Source: Phoronis australis
Taxonomy: Eukaryota; Animalia; Phoronida
Assembly (NCBI GenBank): GCA_002633005.1
Contig: NMRA01000023.1
Span: forward strand, 178,580-242,579
DNA: 64,000 bases
Direction of reading: 5' to 3'
Both the position numbers and the translations under genes were made by a program. Under the pieces are notes generated by a model. That model searched no databases. It worked only from the letters and a program-made list of their open reading frames with translations, and was not told where the DNA came from. Below are positions 10,430 to 58,779 of the stretch, piece after piece; within the stretch, counting starts at the first letter, position 1, and the number at the start of each line of letters is the position of its first letter.

Positions 10430-10643
10430 TTAAAATCCCTTTAATATACACTAGACGTTTCATTACGATTGTTGCAATACATACATGTTCAACAACGTAC
10501 GTGTTTGTACCAGTATTTATTATATCGAAATTCGTGATATGCAAAAGTAATTGAACGAGGTCGAAGCCTTTTTTCTTTAACCCTAAAAATAGTTACGTTT
10601 TGTTAAATAAGGCCCATTATTTGTAATGTCTCTACTTTTTAAG

Positions 10644-35685: not shown

Positions 35686-35796
35686 CTAATTGATAAAGAG
35701 TAATCTCAAACGAAAGCTCCTCCATTGTCCTGTTCAAGCGATCGTAATAATACGTGTGTCTACAACGATACGTCCCAAAATCTGAGGTCCACATAC
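35686..35796 (-). CDS. Exon 11: Ig domain 2, F-G strands (RMWTSDFGTYRCRHTYYYDRLNRTMEELSFEITLYQL)
   Basis: DFGTYRC motif. Acceptor gttgtag|GT, donor G|gtgagt, 111 nt, phase 1-1. The donor shows the gene continues to lower coordinates, but those exons were not identified. Confidence 0.85.
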
Positions 35797-37479
35797 CTAC
35801 AACGTCACAAAAAAACTTTATTAGCATCAGAGCAGAAAATTGACATTTGCTTGAGGTGTAACTGGTAAATAAAGTAGAAGAAACATTCAACATATAAATC
35901 TTTTACGCGGTAAGAACGCAAACCACCCCTTAGTCAGCCGAACACAACTTGATAAGTATTCAGCATAAATTGTTGATGTTAAGGTCAGGTTAAAAACAAC
36001 CAACACATATCACGAGCTGTTCTTAACGTTTGAAGATCAGTCGAAAGATATCACGAAAATATATACATTTCGTAAAGTAGAGACCTGTATGTTTTTGCCA
36101 TTTAAGATTACTTTTTTATTTTTGTAAAGAGTGGGCTGGCTTTCCGCAGAAACTTTATTATTTACGCGACTAAGCATTGGAGTGATTGCCGATAATGAAC
36201 GCAAATCAGCTGATAGAGGAAATACATGTCGAATATAGACTATCAAACTGGAGGTAAAGTAAGTTTGGTGGATTATCACTTGTTTATCGCCAACAAAATA
36301 ACTGAGTTTGTTAAGTATAACTTTGGAAATCAAAATGTCAGTTTCTAACCCTTATAAGAAAACAAAGAAAACAAAAAACAGGATATTAAAATATCCCGTT
36401 TTTTCAAAAAACGGGATATTTTAATATCCTGTTTTTTGTTTTCTTTGTATCCCATTTGTTTCGTTCATTGTTCTAAAACCCCATCGACTCTCACACCCCA
36501 CGACCCCCTCGACCCACGACCCTCTCTACCCACAACCCCCACGACCAAGAACCCACAACCTCACGACCTTTGCCAATAGATGCATCATATTTCATAATCT
36601 CATTCAGTTGCTGAATGGCTTTCCAGTAAGACTTACCCACAAGATAATCTACTCTGCCTCAAGTCTGGTGGTCAAAAATTGAAAGTGGCTTAAAAACATA
36701 ATCTGAAATAGGGAATTGTGAGCGCCCTATCAAGCGTTGCCACGGAAATAGTTACATGAGCGGCTACCAGTGGTTCTGTTCTGCTAAACTTAGGGAGAGA
36801 GTACGTTAATGTAAAAGGACATATTTTTCATTTTTTTTATAATTTGCTCTCTGCTGTAGACTCGTTCACAATATACTTCATGTAAAGTTGATATACTTTT
36901 ATTTAAAAAAATGTTTTTTAACTGTAATTACACATTCGTCGGTTCCTCTCACTCTCTCAAAAACGCTTGAATCTGTCATTCACTAAAGAACAGACGAAAC
37001 GATTACACTTTGCCGGGAACGACATTTGTAACGTAGGTAGGTCCTTGATTTGATTTGGTCGCGATGATTTCCATCCGGTTTTTGGCTTTCAAACGTGCCG
37101 AATCGATTCTCTGAATTACAGAAAACAGGGAAAAGCTAGCCTAACTCACGGTCCAACTCGTTTGTCCTGCAACTCAGCGCTTGTTTTATGTTGAGATCGA
37201 GTCGAGCTTGCGTAGAATAGGTCGAGAGGGTTGTCGACCGGGGATCGAGGTGATCGTGGGTAAAGGGAGTCGTGGGTTGAGGGGGTCGTGGGGTGAGGGA
37301 TCGAGGGTTGTTTAGAACAATCCTCATTTTGCAACCACCATGCAAGACATTCTGGACAATTTCGGTCCTTTTAATTTTATGAGGTTCATTCTGCCAAATA
37401 AATTTGAAAAACGTACGTTCTAATTGGTGATCAAGTGGTGATCATGAGGCTATGTGGACGTAATTTCAGAAAACTTTCT

Positions 37480-38170
37480 GTGATGTTTTGGATAAACATG
37501 CACGTATTATCCACGTCAGAATCAAGGGTAAATCGCCTCCATGGTACAACGAGGAGCTAATTTCATTGTCTCGTATAGCCCAACGGTCGCGTAATATTTG
37601 TGATTTGAACAAATTCAAAACAACACGTTCATAATCTAACAAATAAAGCAGCAAAACAGGCCAAGGCAGAATATGATAATACATTAATTAATGACAACAA
37701 TTCAGAATGGAAATCCTTATGGAAATTCTGCTACTGGAATTGACGGCATGAATCTGAGTGTTTTGCAAATCTATTACCGCGACCTCAATTTCGTTTGTCA
37801 GCAAATTCATGGCCACGCTCTGCGACTGGGCGGCCTTGCTGACATATTAAATTATGGTATTACAGAACACTCTCTGTTCTATAAACGAGGATTTTCTCGC
37901 CCCAGGCAAGCACTTGCAGTGTATTGAGTTTGCGGATAATGTTCCTAGTGCATCATATTCAGCACGTGAAATTATCAAGTGGAGTACGATCTGACCACGG
38001 GGGTCCGGGCCCTGCTCGAACACGGCCAAATGACATGGAGAATAAAAAAATGTTCCGTCAATAAAAATGTTGATCCACTTCTCAAAAATGAAAGAAAATG
38101 AATTATGCAACTGTAGGCCTAATTGCCATTGACCTAGCGTGAATCAAAGCCTATTGGAAAATCATTGATT
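37480..38170 (+). mobile_element. CR1/L2-like LINE ORF2 relic
   Basis: VRIKGKSPPWYNEELI and a frameshifted NCRP..LT..LLE segment, typical of the tether and RT start. Heavily decayed. Confidence 0.5.
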
Positions 38171-38190
38171 ATACCCAGTCGAGTACGTAC

Positions 38191-38341
38191 GAGAGATGAC
38201 AATATCCACACTTTCGAAAGCTCCAGAGGCAACAGCTCCCGGCCCTGTCACAGTATTTAGTTGTCCTTTGTACCTCCCCATGGACTTGTAAGGTTCCAGG
38301 AGCGTTCCCTTGTCCCAAATATTTACGAAGTCATCAGATAT
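38191..38341 (-). CDS. Exon 10: Ig domain 2, middle (ISDDFVNIWDKGTLLEPYKSMGRYKGQLNTVTGPGAVASGAFESVDIVIS)
   Basis: Acceptor tatttcag|ATA, donor C|gtacgt, 151 nt, phase 0->1. Paralog of exon 5. Confidence 0.8.
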
Positions 38342-38751
38342 CTGAAATACGGTCAAATTCATTTCACGAACAATCCATGGCTGAAAAACAGTTAGGTGGC
38401 TCGTACCAATACCCTGTCACTTCTAAACCCGATAGCCAGGCCTCTTTACGTGCTCAAAAATCAAACTTTTGAATATGAGAGACTTGAGACTAATACTTAG
38501 ACCCCACTGAGGTTCTGGAATCATACAGATCATAGGCAACAAGACCTACTTAGCACGTTCACAGTTGTTGAGCGCAGCCTTCTACATAATTCTTTGGAGC
38601 GTTCCCTGTGTGTGTGTTTGCGATTCCTCAATAACCTGGACAGCGGCAAAATTCGACGCACAAACCGTTACTAAGTATTTCGTTTCCACTACAACCCGTT
38701 TCAATTCTTGCAAATCTCCGTTAATATTCGAAGCAACTGTAGCTTGATTAC

Positions 38752-38900
38752 CTTCCTTTGGACCTGCACTTCCAGACTCTGAAGAATCACGTTTGCAGAC
38801 CTCCACAGCTTGCAAGTTAACTTCAACCTTTGTCCTGGCCATTTGTACACATCTTCCCTAACATTTTCACCGTTTATCTGTAAGTCAGCAGTGCCGGGTC
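38752..38900 (-). CDS. Exon 9: Ig domain 2, strands A-C (PGTADLQINGENVREDVYKWPGQRLKLTCKLWRSANVILQSLEVQVQRK)
   Basis: Acceptor tttctag|GA, donor AAG|gtaatc, 149 nt, phase 1->0. GQRLKLTC B-strand. Aligns without gaps to exon 4. Confidence 0.8.
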
Positions 38901-41636
38901 CTAGAAATTCAAAACGTGTTGTGCGTAATCATTATCCTGTAAATATTCTACTGGTAAACTAACAACGCGAAGACCTATAGTTAAAAAACTGTTGAGTGAA
39001 CAAACTTCGTACGCGATATCATTACCAGCTTCAGGTTGCTCTAAATTTGACAAAGCTCATAGATTGTTTTATCGATGTGGTACATGTAGCATTTATTGCC
39101 CCTAACTTGGTTGAAACCGAAAGTAGAATCTTCTTAAATAGTGACAACGCTAAAACTCTGAATCACGGCGAAAAGAACGGCGGTAAATAAACTGGCAAAA
39201 GCAATGCATTTTGAGGACAGTCGCTACGCAGGTAACAATTCCGACGCCGGTCCCATTGCCATAAATTTGTAACATCCTTGATCCCCTTTTCCAACTTCCA
39301 AAATTTTCATGAGATCATCACGGATGGGAAATGGATACAACATCGTTTCGTACTGATTGTGAGCTAATCTCTCCTCAACAGAGAGCAAATTCTGTTGCAA
39401 GACAACCATGTGATCGGTAACACTTGTTATCACACCAACGTTTGCCCAATTTCTGAGCACAAGAGATGAGGAAAAAGTTTTGTTCAAAAATAGCATCAAA
39501 TTTTGATCAGCAAACATGTCGTCAGCTCGGCAATCGGCAAATCCGATGGCAAAATGAATTCCATCACGAACTTGACTTAAAAATGAAATGTGCGCTCAAG
39601 TATTGGCTTCCGGACGATCGTCAACACAGGCCTGAACGGGGTAGCCTTCAATCTTTAAGAGACGTGAAAAATGTTTCACCAGTAACGCTGATATTTGGCA
39701 ATAACAAGTCTTAACATATACTCTCGGCGACAGACTATCGACAAATTGTGTAGTTGTCTCCCCTCACTTTCACATTACTGATAATTAGTTCGATCCTGTT
39801 TGTTTCATGCTGCCAAGAATTAGAGCCTTCGCAGTACATGTATTACATATTACAAATTTCTGGCGATTGCTGAGTGAAGAAAATCCATTTTCCATCGAAG
39901 CACTAATACTGGTCCGATCGAGGAGCACGATTTAATTAGTAAGGGTGAAGGTGGGCACACAACGAATACATGTAAACAGTTAACCAGCAACAATCTGGTA
40001 CATACATACAATATCCTTTTCTTTCCGTACAACGTACTTGTTTTAATACATAAGTACAAAGCTAGTGCCATGAAGTTCCCGCGCAAACCATACGTTAGAA
40101 TAAACTGATCTGTTTATGCGATCTCCTCCTATCTCATTCCCTGTTAAATTCATTCAAAACACGTCTTAAGTCGAGGAGCTTGTACACTTCAAACTGATAT
40201 TTGCCCATTCTGCGATTGGCTGATATTCCACTGGTATGCTTGAATTGAAATAACACTTGATCACAAGATAACGTATGTATCAACTTGGAACTTTAAGGTC
40301 ACTCAGTCAATCATAAACTTAAGCAAATTAGAGGTTCATAAGGTTTCAAATGAAAGAGAGATCAGATCAAACCAGTCGTTCTTTTCTGAATACGAGTTTT
40401 AGGGGATCATTTTAATAATCCAAAAATGACATCATACTTAATCTTGAGATAGTTTGCACAATTTGTGTATATTCTCACGCATATCTCAATCAGCCAACAA
40501 ATCAGCGCAACAACCAACCATCCATAATAAGACACTTTTCTTAACATGTTCTCTGTACCGGAACGTGGTATTCTTGATTTGGCACAACCAATAGTGGGCT
40601 ACAATATATATATATCTATGAATATTTCGCACTACTGCGTATGTTTGACAACACGCGTAGGGATTCTTCTAAAACCCCATCGACACCCTCGACATCCACA
40701 CCCCACGAGGCCCTCAACCCACACTGGCAATCCCCTCGACCCACGACCCGTGGCAATAGATGCTTTTTACACATTACATAATCATACTACGTCGCTGACA
40801 AGCGAATTTGCCCTGACTCAAGACTGGTGGTTAAAAACAGAAAGTGGCGTGAGAACGTCATTAGAAATAGACGATTGTGAGCGTGCTATCGTTGTCACGG
40901 AAATAGTTCCACGAGCGGTTACCAATGATCCTGTTCCACTAAACTTAGGGAGATAGAACGTTAACGCGAATGTACAGTACATAATTCCACACTCTTTTAT
41001 ATTATTTGCTTCTTGTTGTGTACTTTTGTACAATATACTCCATATCACGCTGAGATACTTTTAGTTTAGTTTGTTTTTTCAAACTGCGTTTAGTGATGAA
41101 ATTACATATTTGTCGGTTCCTCGTTCAAATACTTTTGCATATCCCGAATCTCGATATAATAACCACTGGTACAAACAAGTACGTTGTATAACCTATGTTT
41201 AAATAACGTCTTGCGGAAATTGACGAACATTGTATAGAACGAGCTTCCAGCAAATTGACGGATTGATAGATTACACAATTTAAAGCATTTCCTTGGAGAG
41301 GTAGACAATTAGGCCCAGTATCATTGGAATGAAATCAAATGTTAAAATTCGAAAAAAGTTCCCTGATGTGTTTAGAGTCTGAAGTGCGGGAGATAATGAC
41401 ACTAGGGACTGGGTGAAGCAAAGGAGGCCGAACATCAGTGCAATTTTTCTGTAAAGCTTCAAAACGTACTCCAAAGACATTTTTGGTAATGCTCTGAGGA
41501 GGCCCAGGCCTTATGAGCTCCCTAAATTATAATGTAAGAGAGGTTTGTCACTTTTGATCAATCCTTGCGTAAACGCTTAGTTGTTTTGCGCAAAATAGTG
41601 TACATACACACGATGGCGCAGCCTAAATCTACTTAC

Positions 41637-41710
41637 TTATAATCACCACAGGGAACAGACCAAAGATTTCAGATTCTTCGCACCTGATTCCTTTATAGTC
41701 ATCTGTACAT
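41637..41710 (-). CDS. Exon 8: C-half of EGF domain 2 (CTDDYKGIRCEESEIFGLFPVVII)
   Basis: Acceptor tatttcag|A, donor A|gtaagt, 74 nt, phase 2->1. YxGIRCEE motif. Confidence 0.85.
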
Positions 41711-43616
41711 CTGAAATACATATACCTCACTTCAGCCATAATATCTAACAGCACGATTTTTCTCCAATGCCCTTAATCTATCCACGCGATTTGAGTACCG
41801 GCATATACTTTTGATAACGGCAAAGGTTTATGAATAGTCCATATATACAGAACATGACGTTCCGTGACTAAGTGACCCACACTCCTGACAATAGAACCCG
41901 TTCAACAGAAAGCAAATAACAATGTAAACTTATGTGCATTCACGTTAACGTACTCTCTCCCTAAATTTAGTAGAACAGGGCCATTGGAAGCCGCTCGTGG
42001 AACCATTTCCGTGACAACGATAGCACCCTCACCTATTTCGGATCATGTTCTTACGCCACTTCTTGTTTTTAACCACCCGGCTTGAGCCAGAGCAGATTCG
42101 TGTGTAGTAAGTCTTATAAGAAAGTCACTCAATGACGCAATATGATTAAGAAATGTGTAAATAGCGCAGATACACATCCATTGGCACATGTAGTGGGTCA
42201 AGGGGGTGTGGGGGTCGAGAGGTTTTAGCACAATCCCAGCAGAAGAAATCACTGTATTATTGACTGTGTCCATTTAACAAAGCCGAGACGAGTCGAGAAA
42301 GGTTTTATCGATTCATTGCAATGTTCCTCGTTCAGTATGTGGTATAAATAGATTATTACATGTTCCCAGGCGTAATCCTCCTTATCTAGAGCCCTCCTGG
42401 GCGATAATTCTCCAAATTCCACTCGGTCTCTAGAATACGGGGGATAACGACTTCGTCACGTAATAATCTATAGTTATTTCATTGTTTTCCACTTAAACAG
42501 CTGCAACGAATAAGGTGAGTGTCGGTTGACTAAAAGATTTTGCATGCTGAATATTAGATTGCAGCTGGCTGGCTGGCAAGAGTCCACACTGCCCAGTCAC
42601 GCCACCAGTGTAAATTGTTGATACAGACTGGGTCCACCGGCATTTTTTTTTCTGACGATGACGACGACTGGGTATCACTTTGTGTTGCCTCGGCCCAAAC
42701 AGGTATCCCTGGTGACCCGACATTTCACATTAAAATTTCTTGTTCCGACAGTTTGAAGAACACTACTCGACTGCACGCTGAAATAGGACACTGATTTTAC
42801 CCCACCAACTACGTCACGAGAAGCAGCGCTCCAAGCGGGTGATTTCTTACCTCCGTTAGAGAATATAAAATTTATTCAGAATAAAATACAGTTCCCTTTT
42901 AAGTTGTTCTCAATTCAGCCACAGTTGGGCTATATTATTCCCTTATCAAGGCATCTATACTTTCTTGTTCTCGCGCGGCTCGGGTATGCCTGCAAAGCGC
43001 ACACAACTGTTCTCTCGCGCACCCTGTTCTCCTTTGGTAGGCTCTTATTCCACCTCCCGGACAAATTTGGCGTCTTCTGGACTTATTTCTCTGCCACAGC
43101 TGTTCACTACTCTAAAATTAGTCTGTCTATATATTGCGTGACACCATGTTTTGACTCGAGCGGTAGGCAATCTTTCTAAGCTGAGACCTCTTTGTCCAGA
43201 ACATGGTTATGTTTTCTCCCATCGAGAATAATGATGATACTGACCCAAATGATTCACGATGTTGATTATTGGCCAAATTAGAAGCATAAAATTGAGAACG
43301 ATTATTGAAAACACATCGTAACTTTATACGAATAGCATACAGTGTGATGTTAACGACATTGGCTCTCAGTTACCTATCGTAAAGCTTGCCAAAGCTATCC
43401 TAGAGACCACATTTGTCAATTAAATTGCAGGTTGCGAAAAGAAAATCAGTAGAGCCTGTTCTCAAGTCAAAACGAACTGGCAATTCTTTCCAAGTACAGA
43501 TATCACACATACTTCTACTGTGGGACAATTTGGTGCAAATTTGATAACAGAAAGCGCTCTAAATCAAAAATGAGTTTTTGTGACGGAAGGTGAATTTAGA
43601 GCCGCTTTAAACATAC

Positions 43617-43701
43617 CTGCAATATTCTATTCCAAGTGAGTTAACAAAGCATGTCCCTCCATTGAAACAAAAAACTTGCCTCTGGCACCGGTCTGGTTGG
43701 T
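43617..43701 (-). CDS. Exon 7: N-half of EGF domain 2 (DQPDRCQRQVFCFNGGTCFVNSLGIEYCR)
   Basis: Acceptor tcttatag|AC, donor AG|gtatgt, 85 nt, phase 1->2. CFNGGTC motif. Confidence 0.85.
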
Positions 43702-44454
43702 CTATAAGATAAATACACATCACTGATTAAATGGAGTGCTATTTTTTGCTAGGTAATTACAAGTTGATTTAACTATTTAAGTGCAATGCAATAGCTCCCT
43801 AAGTGTTTTGACTAGGAAAATTTATTATGAAATCTTCCCCCTTCACACGCATGCGTACTTTCTGCGTTTTAAATGGCATATTTTTGTGCAATTTTCCAAT
43901 ACAGATGGTTAAATATGACAAAATTTTGAACTTCAACTTCGCCATATTCGTTACTATATTGTACATGCGCAAAACATTGCTTTTTGAACGCGGTTGCTAA
44001 TAGGTTGAGGAAGGAGAGGAAGGAGACGACTGCGAAGCTTGTTGTTTTGAGCAAAAATGTACAGTAAAATTCAAATGAAAATACCTAAATTTACTTACAT
44101 CAAATTGCCGGAAATTTCCGAAAAGGTCTCCAGGGTTTGATTGCGAAATTGTGTCCAGAATATTTAGGAAGACCCTTAGTTGAAAACTTGGGATTTTGCT
44201 GAGCTGAATTGAATATTGTTACCATGACATCTAGGTATTTTAACTACCACGATCAACAATTTTAGGCTCCATGGCCGTATTACTAGAAGCAGGCAACCAT
44301 GTTTAAGTAAGCAACGGTCGTCCTCCCTAAAAGGTGCAATTACAGCGGTATTTTATACTGCGCACACTGAATACAAACGGAACCTTGGAGAATTTACATT
44401 GCGTGTACGATTTATCAAAGGAATATCCCAAGCAGTAGCACAATCTAGATAAAC

Positions 44455-46610
44455 AAATAAGAGCAACGCGAAGCGTTGAAATGCGCCCAAAAGTGCAACG
44501 TAAAACGTTTGTTGATAGTGGTGTTTTAATATCATAGAAATGGTCATTCGATAGCGTAGAAAACGTTGAATCCGTTCGAACTTGGGAAGGCGTCGTCATC
44601 TCTATAATACCAAACTTTCAGCCAAAATTCTATGCAAATCAAGGAAATCCAAAGATAAAGAGGCAGACGTAAAAAGGGATAGGTTGCCATTAGGAGGCAA
44701 AGCGGTAGTCGAGTCCGAATATGTTGTCAGGTTAATAGTAATACACTTGCCAAATTGTGATCTTGCAAGGGGTCTGATAAATGCAGCCACAGGACAAAAA
44801 TGTCGCTAGGGGAAAGCACAGTACTTGGACGCGTCTGAAACCACCCCAGTCGTGCTCTTGTCAGTAGTAACACATCTGCTAATTTTGATAGTGATCATCT
44901 TGGCTGTTAAGTGATATAGAAGCAGACGGTAAAAAGTAGATTTAAAATGGCCACTAGGCGGCATCAATCCCAAAATAGAAAACTGCTGTCGTCTTCATAA
45001 TGGAAATTTGTTCAACAAATTTCACGAAAGGATATGAAGGATATCTGAAGACAAAGAAGTAAAGGTAAAAAAATAAAAAGGTGGAAGCTAAAAACGAACA
45101 TCAAATGATAAAAGTAAAATGACCACTAGGTGGCGCAGAATACGTCAAATGCGTGCGAAAACCAGCGTTATCCGCGGACTTTCATCGTAAACGCATCTGT
45201 CAATGTTCTAAATAATCTTTTAAGCGCAGATACAGAGGCGGTCGCCAAAAAAATGGGAATGTGCCGTTTTCTTCTTACTAGAAACCTATTTGCTAAATTT
45301 CATAAAAATCCATTGAGGAACTCCCAAGATACAGACGCAAACAAAAAACTAAAATTTCCACCAGGGGGAAGAACTGTAGTCATATCGGTTCGAAACTCGT
45401 CGTCGTCAGTCGGGAGGAGATACAAAAGCGGGCGCAGGGCGTCCTGCCGCCGCACAAAAAATGATATCAATATGCACCCACATATGGGGGCGCCTGAAAA
45501 CAGCCAGCTGAGAGGCGTACACTACGCTAAATCCATCTGAAACGTTATCTTCTCCTCATTAGTAGAAATCTACTTGCTAATTTTCACAAAATCCCATCAA
45601 GGAACTCTAAAGATACTGCGGAAAACGGGAAAATAAAATTATCACTAGGGGGTACAACGGTAATCGGATTCGTCCGAACATCGGCCTTATCTGTTGTCAC
45701 CTTCATAGAAATACACTTGCCAAAGTTAAAAAGATCTTGTGTAGGAGATACACCCTCAGACGCGGATAAAACAAAACTACCACTAGGAGGCGTGACAGTA
45801 GTCGGCGCGGTCCAAAAAATCAGCGTCAGCCGTCCACTTTCCTGTAGTAACGTGCATTCCAATTTGTATGATGAGCCTAAGAGTGGTTTGGCTGACAGAG
45901 AGGCGGACGCCAAAACGGACTAAAAATAATAAAGACGACCTGTATGTGGAGCGCACTACGGCAAATTCATCTGGAAACGGAAAGCGTTTCTCTCTTTTTA
46001 CAGAAATTTATTTGCCAAATTTCATAAAATTCCATATATGAACTCTAAAGATTAAAACTGACTAAGGAAAATTGCCAGAAACAGTTGGATCTGTTCGAAT
46101 ATCGTGGTTGCACTTTCACATAAATACATTTGCCAAATTTGACGAAGATCGTGCGGAGAGTTTAAGTGTACACAAAAACAAAACTGCCACTAGGCGGAGC
46201 CACTGTAGTTAGAGTTGTCCGAAAATCATCGTCAGCCGTTCTCTTCCCAGCAAGAACGCCGTGTTTCAATTTACATAGTCATCCTTACGGTGGTTTGGCC
46301 AATAGAGGGGCGAACCGCAATATACAGACTCGAAATGAGTAAACATTTCCACAAGGCGGGGGAAAATACATCAAATCCATCAACAAAACAAGACAGTGTC
46401 TGCATGTTCCTAATAGATACATTTTTGCCCAATTTCATGAAATCCGTTAAGGAAGGCACAGAGACAAACGCAAAGAAATTGTCACTAGAGGGCACACCGG
46501 TAGTCGGATCCGTTCGAAAATTCGCTCTTGCTGTCTCATCCACGGACGGACGCCGGTCTGCCGGACGGACAGACATAATGCGCCCACATATAATTGTGTG
46601 GACGCAAACC
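44455..46610 (+). mobile_element. Non-autonomous Helitron/Helentron-like (HINE-type) element with internal degenerate tandem array
   Basis: Recurrent CCAAATTTCAT-like and CCACTAGGnGGC-like units. GACGGACGGACAGAC microsatellite at ~46545-46575. ATGCGCCC subterminal motif at both ends and a 3' hairpin (CCACA-TATAAT-TGTGG). Inverted fragment of the family at 16870-17050. Confidence 0.55.
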
Positions 46611-47063
46611 AATGACCGTCAGAGCATTTCGTACTTAAATATGGAAATAGCCGCTTCCACCACATAAAAGCTGCATTGTCCAAATGTAATGGATTTGCAT
46701 CAATCTATTACTAAAAGCAGACTTATGGCTAGTATGTCAAAAGCTGTAGCATTACGCAGTTTGCAAAGCCCCTGCTATGGCAGCTAATGCAAATGAACCT
46801 GCCAATCACTTCTTTAAAACTGCATAAAACGCACACGACAAAATGCATTAAGGAAAGTTCACACTTATGGTTTTATGAAAGGGGTGCCACAATTAGCACA
46901 AGTACCAGTACTGTAATTGTTAAAATCCAATAAACGGTTGCCATGGCTGAGATTATCCATATATATGAGGAGCATATGGTTGTGTTACGTTATTTTGGAA
47001 CCTTAATGAAAAGTCTGGTATTTAGCCAAATATCTACAAAAACAGAGTTTGACTAAGTTATAG

Positions 47064-47217
47064 CAGTGGCGGATTTAGCACACATTTAAATCTTGTTTCA
47101 CCCGTATAATTTTAATTACCGGTTTTAATTAATAAACTCAACATTTCCCTACGCTCTTGCCGTTTTGTTTTGTTTTTTTTTTTNGGGGGCGCTCCCCCCC
47201 CCCTAAATCCGCCTATG
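47064..47217. mobile_element. MITE of the same family, 5-bp TSD
   Basis: Termini CAGTGGCGGATTTAG...CTAAATCCGCCTATG with TATAG duplicated. Confidence 0.75.
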
Positions 47218-48179
47218 TATAGAATATGCCACTGAAAGTAGAAAGTCTAAAGAGTTTGATCATTGGCTTTTCGCTAATCTGTCATTATTTGGGACACATG
47301 ATCATGAGTTTTCAATAAAATGTAGTCTAAACAAAATGGCAGATGCATTGATAGCAGAACAACGGTATCAGTAACACGATCCAAATGTATTTGATGTAAA
47401 TGTTCAAAATGAGATCACAAAAGCTTTGTAGGCTTTTCAGTACCAATTCGTTTTCCTAAAAATTATAAAAACCCTATTTTAATAGACAGAGGTATATATA
47501 AAACGTTTAAATAGATATACATATACATATACATATGCCCACACATCACACATATACAAACTTGATTGAAGACATGACCATACTTTTTGTTTGACAGCTT
47601 AATACATCATCTCTTGTAGTATCTAAACAATGTCCTCTCTTTAGGCGTGCAGCACCGACATCACAGACAAACCATGATGAGACACGTGGTCTCGAAATAT
47701 AGCTAGTGTGTTAGCTTGTGTGTCTGTTATGTCTCTCGGTGTTTTGGTAAATAGCCGCACGTCTGATGAAATGATATTGTTTAGAGACTACGAGAGAGTA
47801 TCTGTTAAGCTGTCAAACAAAAAGTACAGCCGTGTATCAAGTTTGTGTTGATGGAGGGATGCTACTGCTAAACATACACATATACATGCACACGCGCTCA
47901 CACGCGCGCATATATATATATATATATATATATAGAACGCATAGAAAATAGAACAAAAAAGGTAAGGAATGGAAAAATAAGACAGCAATTACTATTTGCA
48001 TTTGAATGAAATTGTGGTAAACGGAATATATGAACATGAAGATGCATTGGTTGTGGCCACAATATATACATGCATCCCGCATAACACATTATGCAACTCA
48101 CACTGGTGCAAGCAAGGTTCCATGGATCAGTCACTTACAGAAACATAGACTTGGGTAGGCCTACAGTAGAGACACTCAC

Positions 48180-48284
48180 CTAATTCACGAATTGCAATTA
48201 CTTGTGAAACGTCCGTAAACATCCCTTGTTTGGCATTGTAAGTGTGTATGCACCGATACGTGCCAAAGTCCGAGCTTCTGAGAC
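48180..48284 (-). CDS. Exon 6: Ig domain 1, F-G strands (GLRSSDFGTYRCIHTYNAKQGMFTDVSQVIAIREL)
   Basis: DxGxYxC Ig motif. Acceptor atgacag|GT, donor G|gtgagt, 105 nt, phase 1-1. Confidence 0.85.
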
Positions 48285-49051
48285 CTGTCATTAAAACATG
48301 CTGTGAGCTTGAGTAGAACATTGAGTATTGTTTGGAGAAGCAATTGTTCAATGTTGACTTATGTAGGAGAGAGTACAAGCAGTTCGATTTTCATCGACCA
48401 CTTCAAAAAAATTCAGTGATAATTTCGGGTAAAGTACATGTTTTTAAAATAAATACGTGATCATAACGATACGTGTGAAGGGTGTTTTCCATCAGCCTTT
48501 CACTATCTCTAGGGCCATTTTTCAGAGACAGATCTACAGGGGTGAGGCGTCTTCAATTAATATTTCCGTGGAAAATGACACTCCTTTCTATCGTAAATGC
48601 GTGACGAGGCTTCGAAACTTTGCCCGACCGCAATTTCCGATGAGCAGCTGTGCCGCTAAGCGAACTGTTTTTGCTCATACCAAAACGGTACTCAGACAGG
48701 TAGGTACACATCAGTCCTGGCAACTTCTTTGCACGAAAATTATACTAAAGGGCGTGGGTTCGTAAGACTAAAGAAAGATTTCCACTGAACAGATGTCAAC
48801 TGTATATCAGACACCTGAAATGTTCTGTCTCATACATTGTTACTAGTATTATGACGCACTCGTCTCTCCATGTCCATTGTTCCTGCATGTACATAAAGAG
48901 ATGCACTAGTATTAAGCTCAGATGTCTGTCACGGTGAACCATTTAAGTCCGCCAGAACAATTAATGTACAGAATGTAAAACTACTCCCAGAAACTCCTTT
49001 CAATCCGTACCATCGGTAAGCTAATGACTGCCACCACAGACAAATACATAC

Positions 49052-49202
49052 CAAAGATCTTCACGTCAACACTACCATAACCACCAGACCCGCCAACACC
49101 CGGTGCCGTCGTGGGATTCCCTTGCACTTTGTACCTGCCTTTCAAATCGAAAGGTTCCAGGAGCGTTACGTTGAAAATGATATCAACAAAACTGCAGTTT
49201 GT
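49052..49202 (-). CDS. Exon 5: Ig domain 1, middle (TNCSFVDIIFNVTLLEPFDLKGRYKVQGNPTTAPGVGGSGGYGSVDVKIF)
   Basis: Acceptor tttttcag|ACA, donor G|gtatgt, 151 nt, phase 0->1. Shares TLLEP..GRYK with paralog 38191-38341, which is also 151 nt. Confidence 0.8.
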
Positions 49203-51243
49203 CTGAAAAACGTTGTAGAGTTTACAAACAAGTTGGCTTTCTCTGAAACTCGCGTTACGGCATGGAACCCAGATACGAAGGCTACTCTTGTTCCCAACGC
49301 AGGATACAATAGCATTCGAAGAAGAAAAGTACAGCTAGTAGTTTTACCGCATTCATTTCCCTATTTGGAATCTTGCTGAGAAACTTTATGATGTTTACTT
49401 TCGCACTTTGAACAAGAGCAAAAGCAAAGTATTGACATGCGCCCACGGCATACCGCTAATTGAGCTCGTTGGATATATTTTCCGTAGTTGCGAACACGAT
49501 AACGTCACACGCGTGTGACGTTATCGTATTCGTAACTACACATAGTAATATTAGCTTGAACAACCAATTTCGCGAGTAACCCATACTTAGGAATAAAATG
49601 AGCATTTGGACTACATGTATGACATCAAACTCTGAAGTTATTTAGATAGTCTCTCAGGCATTTTGACAATCGTTTCCATCTCATATCTCATGACTGTAAC
49701 CAAAATATGTCTTAAATCGTCGAGGATGCTCCAAATTTACACACGACCAACCAAATAAGGTAATCTCAGAACCTCGCCAAGAATATCTTACACTGTGCAC
49801 CTATATACAAAATTTTTGCACTTAAATAAGTTTAAATGCAAGACCTTATTGACACGTCTGCGTGTTTAGCCAAATATCTACAAAAGCACAGATTTAAAAC
49901 TAGTAAAATATAATTTCAGAACGAAAAACATTTGTTGATTTTTTTACTTTTTACCAAACTGCCATTAGTTGGAACACGTAATTGTATCTTTTTAGTAAAA
50001 TTTAAAAAGTACAGAGGCAACAAAATCATGACATCAATAACACGATCAAATTTTACTTGATAAAAATTGACTAGTTTCATAGCAACGGCGTTCAGGGCAA
50101 AATTTTTCTTCCCGTTGTTTTCTCGAAAGAAATCTTATTTTTCATAACCACACGCACGAGCATCTCAACAAAAAGAAAATCGGCTCTCAACATTATTATC
50201 AGTGTTTTTCTGTTGCCCTGCCGTAATTTGTGTCATGTATGCACATGTATTCCAACTATCGGCGACTTACTCAACATATCTTTGGCTACGTGTATTGAAT
50301 TCGCCCAGATCCTGCTGTTATTAATTGGTTTCAAATTTCTTTGATTTTGAAATTGCTTTTCCTTCATGAAAAACTCACGGACAATTCTGTTTCGTGAACA
50401 TCTAGCAGGTATCTGCTGAAAAAGGTTGATGTGACGCTGTCTTTCGTGAATACCGGCAGCGGCACCAAGACTGAAACGCGGAGACGGCAGCTATCGCGAC
50501 TTGCGTAACATTCACCGGCCTGTTCCACACATGCGCGCACCAAGCCTAAAACATGGGGGCTCGAATTTTTGAGAATGTTGACCTTTTCTTAAGACTCGTG
50601 AGATACGTTCAGAGCTATGAAAAGTGTTTTCGCCGAATTTTGACAGTTCCTGCCTTTTTAGTTGAAATTTGTCTCGTTTTCTACCTTTTCTTGGTGTTTT
50701 CTGTTCATCTGAGGAGGAACTGATTGCCAACTTCACCAAATTTCGGGGGATTGTTGGAGCCCCCGAGCCCCCACCCCCCACCCCGGGTGCGTACATGCTA
50801 CCTACATGCCTTTTCTATTGTTACCTAATCAAATCGACAATTATTGGCGGTTCCACAGCATGAAAATAAAAGTTAGCCCCATACCAACTGTAAATGTGGA
50901 AATCAACTCCCAACAACCTAAAGCACAGTACAATCTAAATTGTGCAGCATGGTCTCCTCGCAGGGACATAGGTCGTGTACAGTTGGCCAAGCACAACTAC
51001 GTCCAACTCGCTGCTATTTACTGCTAATTTTTGGCTAAAGAGTTGTTACCGCAACAAATCGGGTACGTGTCCTACTTGGCTAACGATATGCATGGTCGTG
51101 TGGCCCGGTTTAGTCCTCATAATCATTAAAGTAGCATTACAGGTTTTTACTTTTAGAAAACGTCTTATAATTTTGCTGACCTAATTTCTACCCCACAACC
51201 CTCACTGTTTAACTTTCCTCGTAAACCTAGTGTACCTACTTAC

Positions 51244-51392
51244 CTTCTTTTGAATTTGTATGTCCACACTGGGAAAATCGTAATAGGGTGACTTCCAAAG
51301 CAAGCAACTTATGGTCGCGTCATCTCCGTACCGTTTGAACACGTCGTCCCATACATCTTTACCGTCTATATGTAATTGGGCTCGGCCGTGTC
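51244..51392 (-). CDS. Exon 4: Ig domain 1, strands A-C (HGRAQLHIDGKDVWDDVFKRYGDDATISCLLWKSPYYDFPSVDIQIQKK)
   Basis: Acceptor ttatcag|GA, donor AAG|gtaagt, 149 nt, phase 1->0. G-x-x-A-T-I-S-C B-strand motif. Same length and phases as paralog 38752-38900. Confidence 0.8.
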
Positions 51393-51706
51393 CTGATAAT
51401 TAAAAACAGCATGGTATTTTTGTAGTCATATAGCCCTTTTACTGGTAAAATAAAGCCTATGTTCCACGTCAATGCCTCCCTGTGGCTTTTGGAACGTCCC
51501 GGCATGATTTGGGAGGTTGACGATAAGGCAAAGCAGACGTTTGATGAGCGCTTACGTGTCATATCTTTAAGTAGCTGATCAGACCACCGATCTTGTCACA
51601 GCATCAGTTGGGTAATATGTGACAGCTCTAAAGTTATGAAGCTTCATTAAGAACGACGAAAAGGATGATGGCGACGACGCCAAAAGCTGTAAGAGATGTA
51701 ACTCAC

Positions 51707-51838
51707 TGCATTCAAAGGCTGATTCGTCGGATGAGTCGGGACAGTCGTTTTGCGTATCACAACGCTGAGTGAATTGGATGCATGTTTTGCCGTCGTGGCA
51801 CATCCATTGGCCAGAGAGGCACTTGATGGAGGGTACAG
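51707..51838 (-). CDS. Exon 3: LDL-receptor class A (LDLa) domain (VPSIKCLSGQWMCHDGKTCIQFTQRCDTQNDCPDSSDESAFEC)
   Basis: Six cysteines with the canonical CD...DCxDxSDE acidic motif. Acceptor gtaccag|CT, donor A|gtgagt, 132 nt, symmetric phase 1-1. Confidence 0.9.
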
Positions 51839-52353
51839 CTGGTACATAAAACAAATAATGGGCTGTAAAACTTCTTCAAACGGTAACAGAGACGGTAAGA
51901 TCTAAACAAATTCTACACACGCCAATAAATTAGATAGACCTTGGTACCAATATCATGGAATAAAATCTAGCCTACCGAGCATGAAATACAGGAGACCAGA
52001 CACTGGCGGAGCAAGGGTACAACTACATCTCTAGAGATAAATATGCCCTGAATGCAGACGTGTGGAAAATATGTACACTGACAACTGGATGTAGCAAGTA
52101 ATGCTCAACTACAGCTTGACGTGAAAAGTCAATGTTCTCAAAAACTTCAAAATGTTATGCCGGAGTCAGGTTGGCCATGCTCTGACAATGCCAGGCCTTG
52201 TGAACCCCTAAATCATACTTATTCTATTTTACACTGATCAGTCCTTTTTACAAAGTTGCATTGCTCTCATTTATTTTCTCTGTGAACATTCAGATGTAGG
52301 GTCTACTGCACAAATAATGTAAATGGTGACGTAATCTAAACAAACCTACTTAC

Positions 52354-52421
52354 TTACAACCGGGATTACAAAGTCAATTACAGGTTCTTCACACCTAATT
52401 CCTTCGTATTCATCAGTACAT
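52354..52421 (-). CDS. Exon 2: C-half of EGF domain 1 (CTDEYEGIRCEEPVIDFVIPVV)
   Basis: Acceptor tattccag|A, donor A|gtaagt, 68 nt, phase 2->1. Cys5-x8-Cys6 with YxGxRC. Paralogous to 41637-41710. Confidence 0.85.
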
Positions 52422-54359
52422 CTGGAATACAGATATCTCACTATGTTAACATTCTACCTGCAAGCTCGTGCATTTAATCAGTCTGTGCCTAATTTTTGTA
52501 CTGTCACATACTTTGTATACATGTAGTGAGCTCCTGCATCCAGAAATGCGTTCCTATCTACGTCTGTCTAAGAAATTATAGTATCTGTCTGCACATCCAA
52601 ACAAAAGAGTCGAAGCATTTGTCCCTTGCTATCTTACATGACCTTAGATGGTAGTTTCACAAAACATCAACCTTAATTAGAGTGCTTGAACCACAGGTTT
52701 TAATTTAGACACGGTGGATTAAACAGCACCTTCCAGCTTTGCAGCTGTAATAGATAGTCTTTCTTGCAGACAACATTCTGTTTCAGATGTCAGACTATAC
52801 ACTACTTAGACTACCATCACGCTGTAAGAGAAATACGTGTATTGTTGGCTTAACTATTTCCATACTGTCATGAGCTTCGGAAGGTTGTGGAACAACTTGA
52901 CAATTGACGCGAAATGGGTTTTTCACAAATAGAGAGAGAATGCCCATTAAAGGCCTTTCGGAACAGTACGCCAAAAAAGCTAGATTCCACCAAAGATAAC
53001 GCCATACAGTAAGAGTAGAGCTGCTGCCACAAATAACGTGCCATTACGCGGAATTCCGTAGAACGGTTTTAAAATGCATATTAGTATTCTGAGTACACTT
53101 GAAGTACATTAATTTAGCTACAGTGCTCGGCAATGCTATTTCAGATTGAGATTGGCAACCTGGGAAAAAGCAATTAGCCACCACGTCGCCACAGCAAGTA
53201 GAGAAGGTTGACAATGATTCAGCCGAAATTTGCTTCAAAATCTATAAAGTCCAAACAATTAATGACATATTTCCTAAATTTAATACCTTTGGTTCACAAT
53301 TGTTGTGCTAATGTCGTGAAATCACCCTCAACAGTCAGCACATATCAAACGTGCTTAAAACACGACAGTAAGTAAGCAGGCAGAAATAGAAATTGTTCGG
53401 CACAAATCGGACAAGTACGCCTTCGGTGTTTCCGATCGTTTGCACTCTGCGCAGGTAAAAGGCGTTCATTTAGATTTTGCAAACAAAAATACGACTCGCA
53501 AATATATTTGAATAAATTGTGGATTGCGGGAAATATGTTACGTGATCGGACAGTCTAATATCAGTAACCCCTCTTAAAGTCAGGGACAAGAAGCAACCGC
53601 AGGTATTCTGGCGCGACGATGTGTTGCCAAAGCGTAGTGTGCTCCACATTGCACAGTGAATGGTGTTTGAGGGAGAATTATAACAGGTTGTGTAATTTAG
53701 AATGAATAACAGTGACAGCAGCACGGCGTTTTTTTATGTTTTTCTATTTTTTATCATTTTGGTCGGCGACCTTCGACCTCATGTTTGGTGTCCGCACCTC
53801 ACTTTTCGCTTGGCGACCTGAGATTTTTGCTTCAGTAGGTCACATTTGGTGAGCCAAGCGTCGAGCACAAAATTGCGAACCATAAATTTCCAAATCACTA
53901 ACACGTCTCTCTAAGAGATCCCTCAATTCCTAGCCCACGTTTGTTTTCACGTGGTGCACCTTGGTGGACTTTCCAAAACTGAAATGTAGGCTTTTGCCAA
54001 CTCCTTCACGCCATCGTTAAAGGCTAAGGCAACCTTTTTTCATGTCATTTTAAGCTAAAATAAGGTTGGTTGGTTATCCTAGACATATTTTCCACTTAAT
54101 TACAGCTCTTCGTAATTTTATTAATTACTCGTCCTCTACTCCGGAAGTGACGTTTTAGGAGGCAAGTGTTTCCCGCCACTTGGTTTTGCGTTGAGTTTAC
54201 CGTGCGAATCTGTTTTATTCTACTTTTGTTTTGTGCTGTTTTTCAACAATTGTCCCCACCACTTTCCATCGGCGAGTATTCTGCGGCAAGATAGGTTAGT
54301 AGAGAACTCAACTACGTTGGATTTAGGGATTGTTTAGTGTGTTGTAAGCTGAAAACGGC

Positions 54360-54655
54360 TGGAGTCGGTGACCCGTATCACAGTGACAGTAGTGTCAGTG
54401 ACGGAGACCTTGTTCACAGCAGTGGTGACGAGGAATTTTTTCACGGACATTCGGTGGGTACATGTTTGAGCCCGAGTATAACGAGGCAGAGTACGCACAG
54501 GCACAAGCAGCTGTTGAGAGAAACGAGGCAGCTACTGACAGACGTGGTGACACATCTTGGTGCAAATGCACTGTGTGCGTTGTTATGCCTACCTCAATGG
54601 AATGCTTGCGCTGTTCAGAGTTCGAAGAGGCCAAGCCACTACTGGACACGGTTAA
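54360..54655 (+). pseudogene. KolX-like / P2X7 C-terminal (ballast)-like Cys-cluster protein, truncated
   Basis: Acidic leader, then YMFEPEY...RRGDTSWCKCTVCVVMPTSMECLRCSE (WCxCxxC..M.T..ECxxCxE pattern). Confidence 0.65.
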
Positions 54656-55443
54656 GTGGACCTCCGGCATACCACGGACAGAGGAACAACTGTCCCACTT
54701 GCCAGAGTATCCCGCGACACACTCCCACTGGATGGTGACCTGAACACCCAAACTGCTTACATCGTGTCGTGTGACTCCCTCGCCACACACCTGGCACCTT
54801 CGAAATAGCTCCAACACTTTAGACAAGTCCACAATAAACTTATCAAAGTTTGGCTCACCGATCTGTTCACTGGACGACGAACTGTTCTCTTCACTGGGTG
54901 TCGAACTGGGCCTGTAATCATTCCCACTACTCAATATCGCTGCAGGGCTGCTTAGAGGCTCTAGGCTGGAGAAAACAGCACAGGGCGAATCACTACAGGT
55001 TCCAGGAATGGCACGCTCTGGGGTACGCTCGTAGGCACGGGTGACAGTGGATGAAGTGCCTCCACTGGCTCCAGTCACTGTACTGGCCACAGCTTGCGAG
55101 GCTTCTCTCTTCAAAATCGCACTTCTCGGGGGTGGCGATGGGGCACTGCCGGGAATCAACACAAACAGAATGGCATCCTTCTTCAGGCATTTTTTCGCAG
55201 GGACCTTCATCAGTTCAGCGTACAAATCCCTTTCGTAATCGGACGGCAGAAAGTGCTTGCCACACACACACGGTAATCCTCGACTGCTTTGTACGTTGCG
55301 TGGACGGGTAACGCTGCGTTCTTCAAACGAACTAGCCAAGTACGGCGAAGTGTGTCATCCATCGGAAAGCGATGCTAAGGTACTCCCAAAGCGTGCGTTA
55401 GACGATAATTAGTACATCCCGGTACGCAGCAATAGTGTGGCAT
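54650..55443 (-). pseudogene. THAP-domain transposase N-terminus (Kolobok-like)
   Basis: ATG at 55443: MPHYCCVPGCTN..P*HRFP..RRTWL..RVC/GKHF..LKKDAI (C2CH THAP), with one stop and one frameshift in a GT run. Downstream KFIVDLSKVLELFRRCQVC..WEC..W segment. DDE core deleted. Confidence 0.75.
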
Positions 55444-56132
55444 GTTGACTGACTAGTAAATGAAAGCAAGCGACGACGTAACTTATCACAACCGAGGTAG
55501 AACAATGACTTACTCGGCAGCTCTCACAGTCAGACTATATGAAAAAAAATTGGCGCGAAATGCTTGCCTCCTAAAACGTCACTTCCGGAGTAGCGGACGA
55601 GTAATTAACAAAATTACGAAAAGCTGCAATTAAGTGGAAAATATGTCTAGGATAACCAACAAACCTTATTTTAGCTCAAAATGACATGAAAAAAGGTTGC
55701 CTTCGCCTTTAACTACAATCATGTATTCAACTGACTAGTAGGATGCATAACTTAAACATCCGATGTCGGATAGCGCATGTGCGAGACTATATGGATTACC
55801 AAAGTATCAAGGCACGGCACAAACGAGAGTAAGTGCATTCTGAAACACATCTAAGCACGTAGTGTGTATTGCCTGCTTGATGCTTGTTTGATGTAAGCCG
55901 TTTAAAGAGCATAGGAATCGGTTCAGGTTGTAAATGAGGGCATGGTTGTCTGCGCAGGCCTTGGCTGGTATGCATCAAAGTGAATAGTCAGCTGTGGCTT
56001 TTAGAAAACTGCATGAGGGACTGCCATATTTTGTGAATGTCACTCCTAACACTTGAAAGGTGACTGATACAGCAATAAATTTCTGTCCTTGGATCGTGAC
56101 AACTTACATGAAGTTGACAACACTACACATAC

Positions 56133-56220
56133 CTACAAAATTCAGGTCCGTAATCTGTCAGACGCATGCACGTTCCTCCGTTGAAACAGAATATCTGAAG
56201 CGGGCACCGGGTTGGCCATC
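56133..56220 (-). CDS. Exon 1 of the visible EGF-LDLa-Ig-EGF-Ig gene: N-half of EGF domain 1 (xWPTRCPLQIFCFNGGTCMRLTDYGPEFCR)
   Basis: Acceptor tgtgttatag|GA, donor AG|gtatgt, 88 nt, phase 1->2. Carries EGF Cys1-4 with the CFNGGTC motif. Paralogous to 43617-43701. Confidence 0.85.
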
Positions 56221-58779
56221 CTATAACACAAAGAACCGCATGTTGAGAATGTCATGAGAACAACATTCCTGCACATGTACTCGCACTGAATTACACTGAG
56301 CCTAAACCAAACAAAATTGAAACCTTTTTGCATTACATTGTAGGCTGCGTTGCACTGATGAAATGAACTGGGGAATTTGGAGTCTTGGTATTGCTACGAA
56401 ATCTAGCCAAGTCATAGACATCTCAGCAGCGGACGCGGCATGAAGATCCCTTTGCCCTTTACCCTCTAATGTGGGAAGTTGTGATTCACAACGAACCACG
56501 TTTGTTTTTGGTCTTGTATAAGACTTTCTGGGCTATAAATAGAATATTATTGACGAGTCTGTGCATATGGTCAAAGTATATTTATTTATACTACTTTGTA
56601 CCAGCCGAGGACTAGTGATGCGCATGCGGTGGTGAGAATACCTCACTTTCTGAAGTGCACAAGGCCTTATTTTGCGAAATGGAAATTCCTCAGAGAATAA
56701 GTTGGACAGTACTCAAATCGTAATTGGTTTCTCATCAAGGTGGGAGCATAAGCATGGTGGCAAGCTCTCAAAACTTATGGAGAAGGCCAAATGACATCTT
56801 AGATGCTCTCGTTGGAAAGCAAGATTGCTGAGTTTCCAGTTAGACTGCTTCTCAATTGCGCCAGTATACAAGATTTTGGACAGTGCGCACCCTGTTGGCC
56901 AGCCACATCTTACAGGATGCTGCTCAGGCAGTTAGGAGACCTATCTGCTTTGTGATCACTACCCATTTTCAGATATATGTTTCATGGCAAACGCCGTAAA
57001 TAATTACGTCGTAAAGTAATTATTTGTAACGTAAAGTAATTATTTGCGGCAAAAAAGTTTTTATTTGCGTGGTAAAGTAATTTTTAGGGCAAATAATTAC
57101 TTTAGGCCGCAAATAAATAGTTTAAGCTTTAAACGATAACTTTACACCGCGAATAAATACTTAACGCCACAAATAATTCATTTACTCCTCTAACGAGATT
57201 TAATTTATACACGTAATTTAACGATTTAATGTTCACCCATTTGACCAGTTATAGCAAAGTGCCGTTTTTTGTTTTAGTCTAACGGAAAAGTGTCACGTCG
57301 GAAATATCATAATACGCGATTGTCGCAGTTAAAAAGTATCATAACGCAGCACATTTGTGATTCTGTTGTGGAATGGTGGGGTACATGTGCAATTCAAAAC
57401 GTGGGATAGGAATTCATAAAACTACATGTACTTCAAAAGTGTCTCATTCAGCTTCCCAACTCTCTTACGAACGTGTTATTCTTGGACTTCAACATTTTGG
57501 TTTTATTAGCCAAACAGTACATTTACAAGGAGAGATGTCACAAAAATATGTCTAATTTTTACAAGTATATTACAAATACTTATGAGTACTGTAATACTGA
57601 AAATTAATTGCATATAAAAATATTTTGTATATGACAGCTTCTCTGCGAAATGGGAAAATTATATTGTTCACGTTAACTCTATGTACATGTAGCAGTTGTT
57701 TACTTTATAAGAGATACGAGAATTGTCTCTTCTGAGGTGTGCATGCGTGAATGAATGAATGTATTTATTTGCTTGTTCGTTTTTGTACTTATTTATCAAT
57801 GATAATAGATACTGAAAAAACTGAGATAGTCCGCCATGAGCGGGACAATTGGCGAGGATAATGTACGCAGTTAGCAACACACAGCATTGGCTTGGATTTT
57901 TACCAGGCAACACTTTAATTTTCTAAATTTCATAACATTCATTACTCAGAAATTGAATTAACAAGACACTACGGTATCTGGGCAACGCGTCAACATTGCT
58001 ACGCAAATACGAGTAGCTTTTCGAAAATCACGTAAACACACCTGCTAGTAGGGGCTAAACTCTTCATTTATAATTGCTGAACAGTCAGAAAGCAAATGTC
58101 ACTTTGTCATGTGATTTCATCACCCAAAAATGTCTTGTTGAAAAACTCTTTGCTTGTAGTTTTATAGCTTGTCGAATGTGATTTTGAGACTGGAGATGAA
58201 AAGATATAAGAGATCAGACTATTCCCGGTATCCAGCAAGGGCCACAGATCGATACGTATGTTAAAGAATGATCAATGCAATTGTCGTGTTAGTTGACTAT
58301 TTTGCCGCTAAATCGCTGGTTTTCTAGAACCGTAGCTCAAGAGTCTTCTTTCGTGAACAAAAATGTCTAAATGAAAGTGAAGCTAAGCAATTCGCCTGGA
58401 TTTGATGTCTACAGCACTCGCTCAAAACTCAGTCGAGCAGACCGATGAGCTATCATAAATTTCACCAAGTAATAATCTGAAAATTGGTGTCCTCAGAGTT
58501 AAAACACCGCGCAAGTCCTCAGATTTACAACCAATTACAAGCCAAACTCATTAATAATTTAATAAAATTTACATTTACTTCAATTTAATGAGTAACTTTA
58601 AATTTTCGTTAATTCAATGTGAGTATCAAGTAAAAATTTTAAAAATTTATAACGTAAAGTAATTAACGACTCCAACCAATAAAATTATAGGTCTTTTGCA
58701 ATTCATGTTGGGCTGTGATCTCCTACATAGAATATTATGTGTCTCCGTATGCGTAGATGTACTTGAATACTGCACTGTA

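Follow-up and report, generated by a model that had tools for sequence, protein, structure and literature searches.

A transcribed Phoronis australis gene with two ligand-type EGF modules, an LDLa module and probable immunoglobulin domains

A stretch of 64,000 nucleotides from the phoronid Phoronis australis (assembly GCA_002633005.1, contig NMRA01000023.1, positions 178,580 to 242,579 of the forward strand; hereafter the window) contains a spliced gene whose product joins an EGF module, an LDLa module, a probable immunoglobulin (Ig) domain, a second EGF module and a predicted second Ig domain. The analysis establishes the chain of exons as far as the second EGF and the transcription of that chain, an internal duplication, the LDLa module and the presence of receptor-contact residues in both EGFs. 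Judged from its sequence, there is about an even chance that the gene encodes a secreted or tethered, two-headed extracellular protein that binds the EGF receptor (EGFR).

Exon chain and transcription

Eleven AG/GT-bounded exons on the minus strand, chained by their coordinates, join into 1263 nt without a stop codon, which amounts to 420 whole codons and two split codons. The exon phases along the chain are 1-2-1-1-0-1-1-2-1-0-1-1. These exons, phases and length had been proposed for positions 35686 to 56220 in an earlier note made from the letters of the sequence alone, and all of them were reproduced. The exon pairs of both EGFs and the LDLa exon come from a six-frame scan, and the six Ig exons from a reading of open segments. 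The product contains 23 cysteines. Each EGF and the LDLa module have six, each Ig has two, and the first Ig (Ig1) has a further one. The exons are listed here with their content and support:

E1, 56133 to 56220, minus strand: Cys1 to Cys4 of EGF1, phase 1 to 2; E1>E2 joint and an upstream loose end in the reads
E2, 52354 to 52421, minus strand: Cys5 and Cys6 of EGF1, YxGIRC and a hydrophobic tail, phase 2 to 1; joints on both sides
E3, 51707 to 51838, minus strand: LDLa module, symmetric phase 1-1, in unit 1 only; Pfam PF00057 match and joints
E4, 51244 to 51392, minus strand: first part of Ig1 with the first Ig cysteine; reads
E5, 49052 to 49202, minus strand: middle part of Ig1 with one extra unpaired cysteine; reads
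E6, 48180 to 48284, minus strand: last part of Ig1 with the DxGxYxC motif; reads
E7, 43617 to 43701, minus strand: Cys1 to Cys4 of EGF2; joint from E6 and a loose end into E8
E8, 41637 to 41710, minus strand: Cys5 and Cys6 of EGF2, YxGIRC and a hydrophobic tail; first 30 nt seen in reads
E9, 38752 to 38900, minus strand: predicted exon, first part of Ig2; paralogue of E4, of equal length, 18 of 49 residues identical
E10, 38191 to 38341, minus strand: predicted exon, middle part of Ig2; paralogue of E5, of equal length, 23 of 50 residues identical
E11, 35686 to 35796, minus strand: predicted exon, last part of Ig2; paralogue of E6, 14 of 34 residues identical

Three raw stranded RNA runs with the same species label (X1, X2 and X3; reads of 151 nt, about 18-19% of each run used) were mapped onto positions 43550-63549 of the window. 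Six joints agree exactly with the model. Their read counts in X1, X2 and X3 are 83, 99 and 0 for E1>E2, 103, 106 and 0 for E2>E3, 122, 141 and 0 for E3>E4, 11, 11 and 0 for E4>E5, 161, 122 and 4 for E5>E6, and 206, 124 and 6 for E6>E7. E7>E8 is supported by a loose end at 43617, where 183 reads of X1 and 155 of X2 continue into the first 30 nt of E8, a sequence unlike the start of the paralogous E2. Counting this joint, 7 of the 10 junctions have read support. The first mate lies on the plus strand in all joint reads, which in a usual stranded library denotes minus-strand RNA, and no competing joint between the model's exons was present among the joints listed. The gene is real and not a chance chain of exons. 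Moreover, reads join 48180 to 43701, one of two junctions that the earlier note had marked for checking; without it the model would have fallen into two genes. The two EGF modules thus belong to a single spliced path, as the earlier note had supposed, with read support up to E8. The remaining joints, E8>E9, E9>E10 and E10>E11, are predicted from matching phases and from the paralogous exons (149/149, 151/151 and 105/111 nt). Among the 11 splice donors scored, those of E9 (5.7) and E10 (5.8) are the weakest, and that of E8 is strong (11.0).

The E6>E7 joint amounts to 16.2, 11.0 and 0.5 reads per million records in the three runs, and this 20- to 30-fold spread is compatible with restricted expression. 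In a contig set (X4) the exons were not covered. The low count at E4>E5 goes with a drop in depth at the 3' end of E4, for which local polymorphism is our guess. At least 11 exon sites, in 10 codons (six silent, four replacing), have a different base in X1 and X2 than in the window. A paralogous source of these reads was considered and set aside: at two of the differing sites, most X3 reads (5 of 7 and 5 of 6) have the base found in the window, which is compatible with allelic variation. Within the LDLa exon, E3, at least 6 of 132 bases differ in X1 and X2 (four silent changes and two within a single altered codon), which is much polymorphism for coding sequence.

Domains and their duplication

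The two EGFs have the spacings C-x5-C-x5-C-x10-C-x-C-x8-C (EGF1) and C-x5-C-x5-C-x9-C-x-C-x8-C (EGF2) and both end in YxGIRC, as first read in the earlier note. Each is interrupted between Cys4 and Cys5 by a phase-2 intron, which is read-supported in both modules. In the definition of Stein and Staros, a Cys4/Cys5 splice site and a nearby transmembrane (TM) segment identify an ErbB ligand, and mucins 3, 4, 12 and 17, meprins and IMPG2 also have both (PMC1618406). The intron had been put forward as a hallmark of EGFR ligands. It is indeed present in both modules, but it is shared with these mucins, meprins and IMPG2, and the nearby TM segment was not found.

Contact residues were compared using EGF numbering to Cys42 taken from the alignment and residue roles from PMC1618406 and PMC4282322. 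Both modules have Phe at the positions equivalent to Tyr13 and Leu15, Tyr at Tyr37, Gly at Gly39, Arg at Arg41, Glu at Gln43 and Ile at Leu47. By sequence, then, each module keeps an aromatic residue at Tyr13, hydrophobic residues at Leu15 and Leu47, and the arginine at Arg41. In EGF itself, affinity depends mainly on Arg41 and Leu47 (PMC4282322). A profile of E1 and E7 searched against the PDB placed seven ErbB-ligand chains (five of NRG1, two of EGF) at the top of 12 matches, with NRG1 at E=9e-4 for the whole chain and 0.013-0.015 for its main stretch, and Notch1 at 0.11. NRG1 was also the best PDB match of E7 alone (E=0.026), and all three matches of E1 alone were ErbB ligands, at non-significant scores. 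The intron position, the contact residues and the NRG1 match support the ligand-type character that had been ascribed to both modules, which can be regarded as credible ligand-type EGFs.

The LDLa exon matches Pfam PF00057 with 34.3 bits (cut-off 24.1, E=2.8e-08), and 43 PDB matches were obtained for it at E<=0.01. Both Ig units contain B- and F-strand cysteines and a DxGxYxC motif. Their inter-cysteine distance is 81 residues versus 52 in oyster NRG (the latter counted by eye in the supplement of PMC4914847). They have no C-strand Trp, a residue visible by eye in 12 of 13 invertebrate NRG-type sequences, the 13th being without a visible Ig. Single Ig exons matched no Pfam Ig family. Profiles of the exon pairs gave PDB matches that were all weak (best E=0.016). 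These were Ig-containing chains in 32 of 32 cases for E6/E11, in 17 of 19 for E4/E9 and in none of nine for E5/E10. From its sequence, the domain between the LDLa module and EGF2 is likely an immunoglobulin domain. It looks V-like, a reading taken from motif and length and not from a profile. The odd cysteine of Ig1 could form a bridge between two chains, or with a cysteine from an exon missing in the model. LDLa and Ig1 together place 196 residues between the EGFs, and about five residues link Ig1 to EGF2.

The two halves of the product align with 83 of 210 residues identical (40%, E=2e-48), with the LDLa module as a clean insertion; this bears out the proposal of an internal duplication of EGF and Ig, in which only the first unit has an LDLa exon. 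The paired exons measure 88/85, 68/74, 149/149, 151/151 and 105/111 nt, and phases are equal within pairs. Equal phases and near-equal lengths across the aligned halves show that an EGF-then-Ig unit was duplicated. Either unit 1 acquired the phase 1-1 LDLa exon or unit 2 lost it. The duplication is old, given that paired exons are only 59-66% identical in DNA and the introns share only two short matches. Between the units, the EGFs have 29 of 49 residues identical, with proportions of silent and replacing differences (pS and pN) of 0.69 and 0.26 over 49 codons. For the Igs, 55 of 133 residues are identical (pS 0.51, pN 0.36, 133 codons). These estimates come from small samples with silent sites near saturation. 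By this measure both domain types are constrained, the EGFs more than the Igs, and neither EGF has thus decayed. A tblastn search of the window gave no further EGF or Ig unit. Two similar-looking cysteine motifs, near 23.9 and 24.5 kb, were rejected: they are without splice context, and the first lies inside a DDE transposase-like remnant.

Homologues were sought with single exons of 43-50 residues, queries of limited power from which each result is weak evidence. The E5/E10 profile gave 447 candidates, none at E<=1, and the E4 and E3 searches gave no candidate sharing three words. Against 1.84 billion representatives, the E4/E9 profile had one match (E=2.5e-4), a 69-residue repetitive peptide judged to be due to chance. 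Two metagenome scans returned 201 and 190 pattern matches, none of which was confirmed. The ESM Atlas gave no match at >=0.8, and E1 found only generic EGF clusters there.

Gene ends and other features of the window

At 56222, 218 reads of X1 and 164 of X2 form a loose end that indicates a further exon upstream of E1. The sequence of this exon has no match in the window at up to three mismatches, and the exon therefore lies outside it. Read by hand and in frame, it closes with ten residues, none of them charged, in which a hydrophobic run precedes Pro, Thr, Ser and the junction Gly. Such a sequence would suit the end of a signal peptide; the final strand of a different domain is another possible reading. 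At the other end, the phase-1 donor of E11 scores 11.9, tied for the highest of the 11, so that at least one more exon is likely downstream. Short candidates for a terminal exon occur at 34330 and 33196, neither of which was singled out, and the top 19-residue hydropathy within the chain is 1.59. On the minus strand, 8841-8722 and 8548-8436 are neighbouring candidate exons whose phases (1-1 and 1-0) are compatible and which have no significant Pfam match. They may be part of a different gene or, with lower probability, of the far 3' end of the EGF-Ig gene.

The E1-E2 intron contains a transposon-like insert at 54170-55400, with a weak match to THAP (55216-55374; E=0.032, under the cut-off) and a 319-codon open frame without a Pfam match. 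It is flanked by a 172-bp inverted repeat (54016-54187 and 55542-55713, 92% identical). Reads on this insert fall on both strands and have many differences, and thus likely come from other copies. Elsewhere in the window, an uninterrupted frame for a fibrinogen C-terminal domain lies at 10643-11248 on the plus strand (PF00147, E=2.2e-40), and a second copy at 19588-19988 is 78% identical over 401 bp. A degenerate array of 6-base telomere-type repeats, with about 80 copies in its core, is found at 15798-16441, internal to the contig. A GIY-YIG-like frame at 22283-22894 on the plus strand (E=0.0017) and a DDE_Tnp_4-like remnant at 23756-23914 on the minus strand (E=0.099), both below the cut-off, are likely mobile-element debris.

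Possible function and known systems

If the upstream exon supplies a signal peptide, EGF1 would stand at the mature N-terminus. LDLa and Ig1 would then act as a spacer and as a handle for binding matrix or a partner. An uncut chain would present two receptor-binding heads to the animal's EGF receptor (ErbB), and two heads could raise avidity or cluster receptors while the signal is kept local. A more specific version, in which the protein is a single-chain bivalent EGFR agonist with both heads active and an LDLa-Ig spacer, engaging two receptors at once, is put forward tentatively and is itself rather doubtful.

Several observations weigh against a receptor-binding role. That both EGFs are part of a single molecule would follow from overlapping joints, the reads being 151 nt long. 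In the 35 kb downstream, hydropathy and splice-site scans trained on this gene gave no convincing TM exon and no convincing additional EGF exon, the same outcome that the earlier note had reported for a TM exon. Neither EGF of the model is near a TM segment: EGF1 is followed by about 380 residues and EGF2 by a predicted Ig of about 150 residues. The spacing departs from the vertebrate ErbB-ligand pattern CX7CX4-5CX10CXCX8C (PMC8657471) in the x5 first gap of both modules and the x9 third gap of EGF2, and Asn occupies the Ile23-equivalent position in EGF2. The first gap does vary among invertebrate ligands, however: in 13 NRG-type sequences it is x4 in three, x5 in three, x6 in two and x7 in five (by eye, supplement of PMC4914847). 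The margin of the E1/E7 profile over Notch is modest (E-values 10 to 100 times lower, from some 15 residues), and a spurious second stretch adds to the whole-chain NRG1 score. The C-terminal EGF halves, E2 and E8, match no EGF in the PDB, and the short-query searches found no orthologue. Finally, the Cys4/Cys5 intron is not specific to ligands (PMC1618406).

The main alternative is a lineage-specific extracellular protein with a role in adhesion, in a barrier or in recognition, which acquired a pair of ligand-type EGF exons by co-option, as MUC3/MUC17, meprins and IMPG2 did. In such a protein the EGFs would serve folding or partner binding and would not directly activate EGFR. We regard this as possible, though it is not what we expect. 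The missing nearby TM segment and the intron shared with mucins, meprins and IMPG2 agree with it, as do the fairly deep RNA coverage in two of the three runs and a fast-evolving V-type Ig for which no homologue was found. For MUC17, which likewise has two EGFs around a spacer, direct EGFR activation is reported to be absent (PMC13643018). However, the equivalents of Tyr13, Leu15, Arg41 and Leu47 are kept in both EGFs despite near-saturated silent sites, and NRG1 and EGF rank above other EGF proteins in the PDB. It is also conceivable, but unlikely, that the EGFs do bind the receptor while the bulky chain makes the protein an antagonist or decoy, or that only one EGF, probably EGF1, is active. 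Pro-EGF, with one active module of nine, provides a precedent (PMC8657471), and EGF2 is directly flanked by Igs, has a loop one residue shorter and carries the Asn at the Ile23 position. Against this, EGF1 and EGF2 do not differ in how well they retain the domain-III contact residues.

Cleavage of a polyprotein into two separate EGF ligands, which the earlier note had raised, is improbable. Two complete ligand-type modules are present, and one minimal RxxR lies between them, at the LDLa/Ig1 border (residues 96-99). However, all further paired basic sites either lie within predicted Ig strands or straddle a cysteine, and no site flanks EGF2, which is separated from Ig1 by only the short linker. 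We consider it very improbable that the transcript ends or diverges after EGF2, with Ig2 (E9-E11) absent or confined to some isoforms. The last three junctions do lie below the read-mapped interval, the donors of E9 and E10 are the weakest, and without use of its donor E8 runs into a stop inside three codons. Nevertheless, E9-E11 mirror E4-E6 in length and phase, contain no stop and have pS above pN, and the E8 donor is strong.

The main cross-phylum survey of EGFR ligands took single-EGF-motif candidates only and excluded multi-EGF proteins by design (Barberan et al., 2016; PMC4914847), and the invertebrate repertoire may therefore be undercounted. If both heads work, the protein would be a natural test of how valency and spacing affect EGFR signalling. 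It would also be a clear case of ligand-exon reuse by exon shuffling, with symmetric phase-1 units and an inserted LDLa exon. If the heads are inactive, the gene would encode one more lineage-specific mosaic extracellular protein, and would caution that a Cys4/Cys5 intron and GxRC alone do not identify a ligand. In the open-licence literature, judged by title and start of abstract, no paper on this architecture was found, and work on multivalent ligands was either engineered or unrelated. No description of a single-chain bivalent EGFR-ligand format was found in the literature searched. The view that the architecture lies outside any described family is in keeping with these searches, in which no match was found.

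Among known proteins, NRG-type ligands (neuregulin-1/2, Vein and the spiralian NRG candidates of PMC4914847) share the ligand-type EGF and, for EGF2, an Ig directly before it. The short Cys1-Cys2 gap is likewise shared, by eye, with Vein (x4) and with NRGs of Lineus, Helobdella and Macrostomum (x5). In contrast, as represented in that source, they have a single EGF preceded by an I-set Ig with Trp, whereas here there are two EGFs, an EGF comes first, an LDLa module is present and the Ig is V-like. Here there is also no Thr-rich linker from Ig to EGF, no TM segment found in the window and no Ig known before EGF1, although some NRG-types have themselves lost the TM region (PMC4914847). Since the unit is EGF-then-Ig, it was the duplication that placed an Ig directly before an EGF. 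The label of a neuregulin-like precursor is thus not upheld, given the order of the unit, the Ig spacing of 81 versus 52 residues and the missing C-strand Trp. Nor does polyprotein describe the product well, as a single minimal RxxR lies between the modules. On its predicted domains (two EGFs, EGF first, a non-I-set Ig), the protein is not a neuregulin.

Vertebrate pro-EGF also has several EGF modules in one precursor. There, only the membrane-proximal of nine modules binds EGFR (PMC8657471), whereas here ligand features occur in both modules and both descend from one unit. In MUC3/MUC17 and MUC4, as here, two EGFs flank a globular spacer and the Cys4/Cys5 intron is present (PMC1618406, PMC13643018). 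Their spacer is a SEA domain, while in the phoronid protein it is LDLa-Ig and no mucin repeat was seen. MUC17 is reported in PMC13643018 to interact with ERBB2 while not activating EGFR directly. The ALK ligands Jelly belly (Jeb) and HEN-1 are secreted proteins with a single LDLa, which Jeb needs for binding dALK, and are described in a review as signal peptide and LDLa only (PMC2708929). The likeness here is one shared LDLa, a very common module. By analogy, and at the far edge of what may be proposed, the lone LDLa could additionally engage an ALK-type receptor as Jeb does, which would make the protein a ligand for two receptor kinases.

A further comparison is with EGF-type ligands of spiralians, especially the putative ligands EGF-2 and EGF-3 of Capitella teleta (PMC4914847). 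Their EGF modules start with C-x5-C as here; no LDLa or Ig was seen in them as represented in that source, and TM-like segments are present in both. The EGF-3 model opens, by eye, with the apparent tail of a second ligand-type EGF before the complete one. Tandem ligand-like EGFs may thus have a spiralian precedent in Capitella EGF-3.

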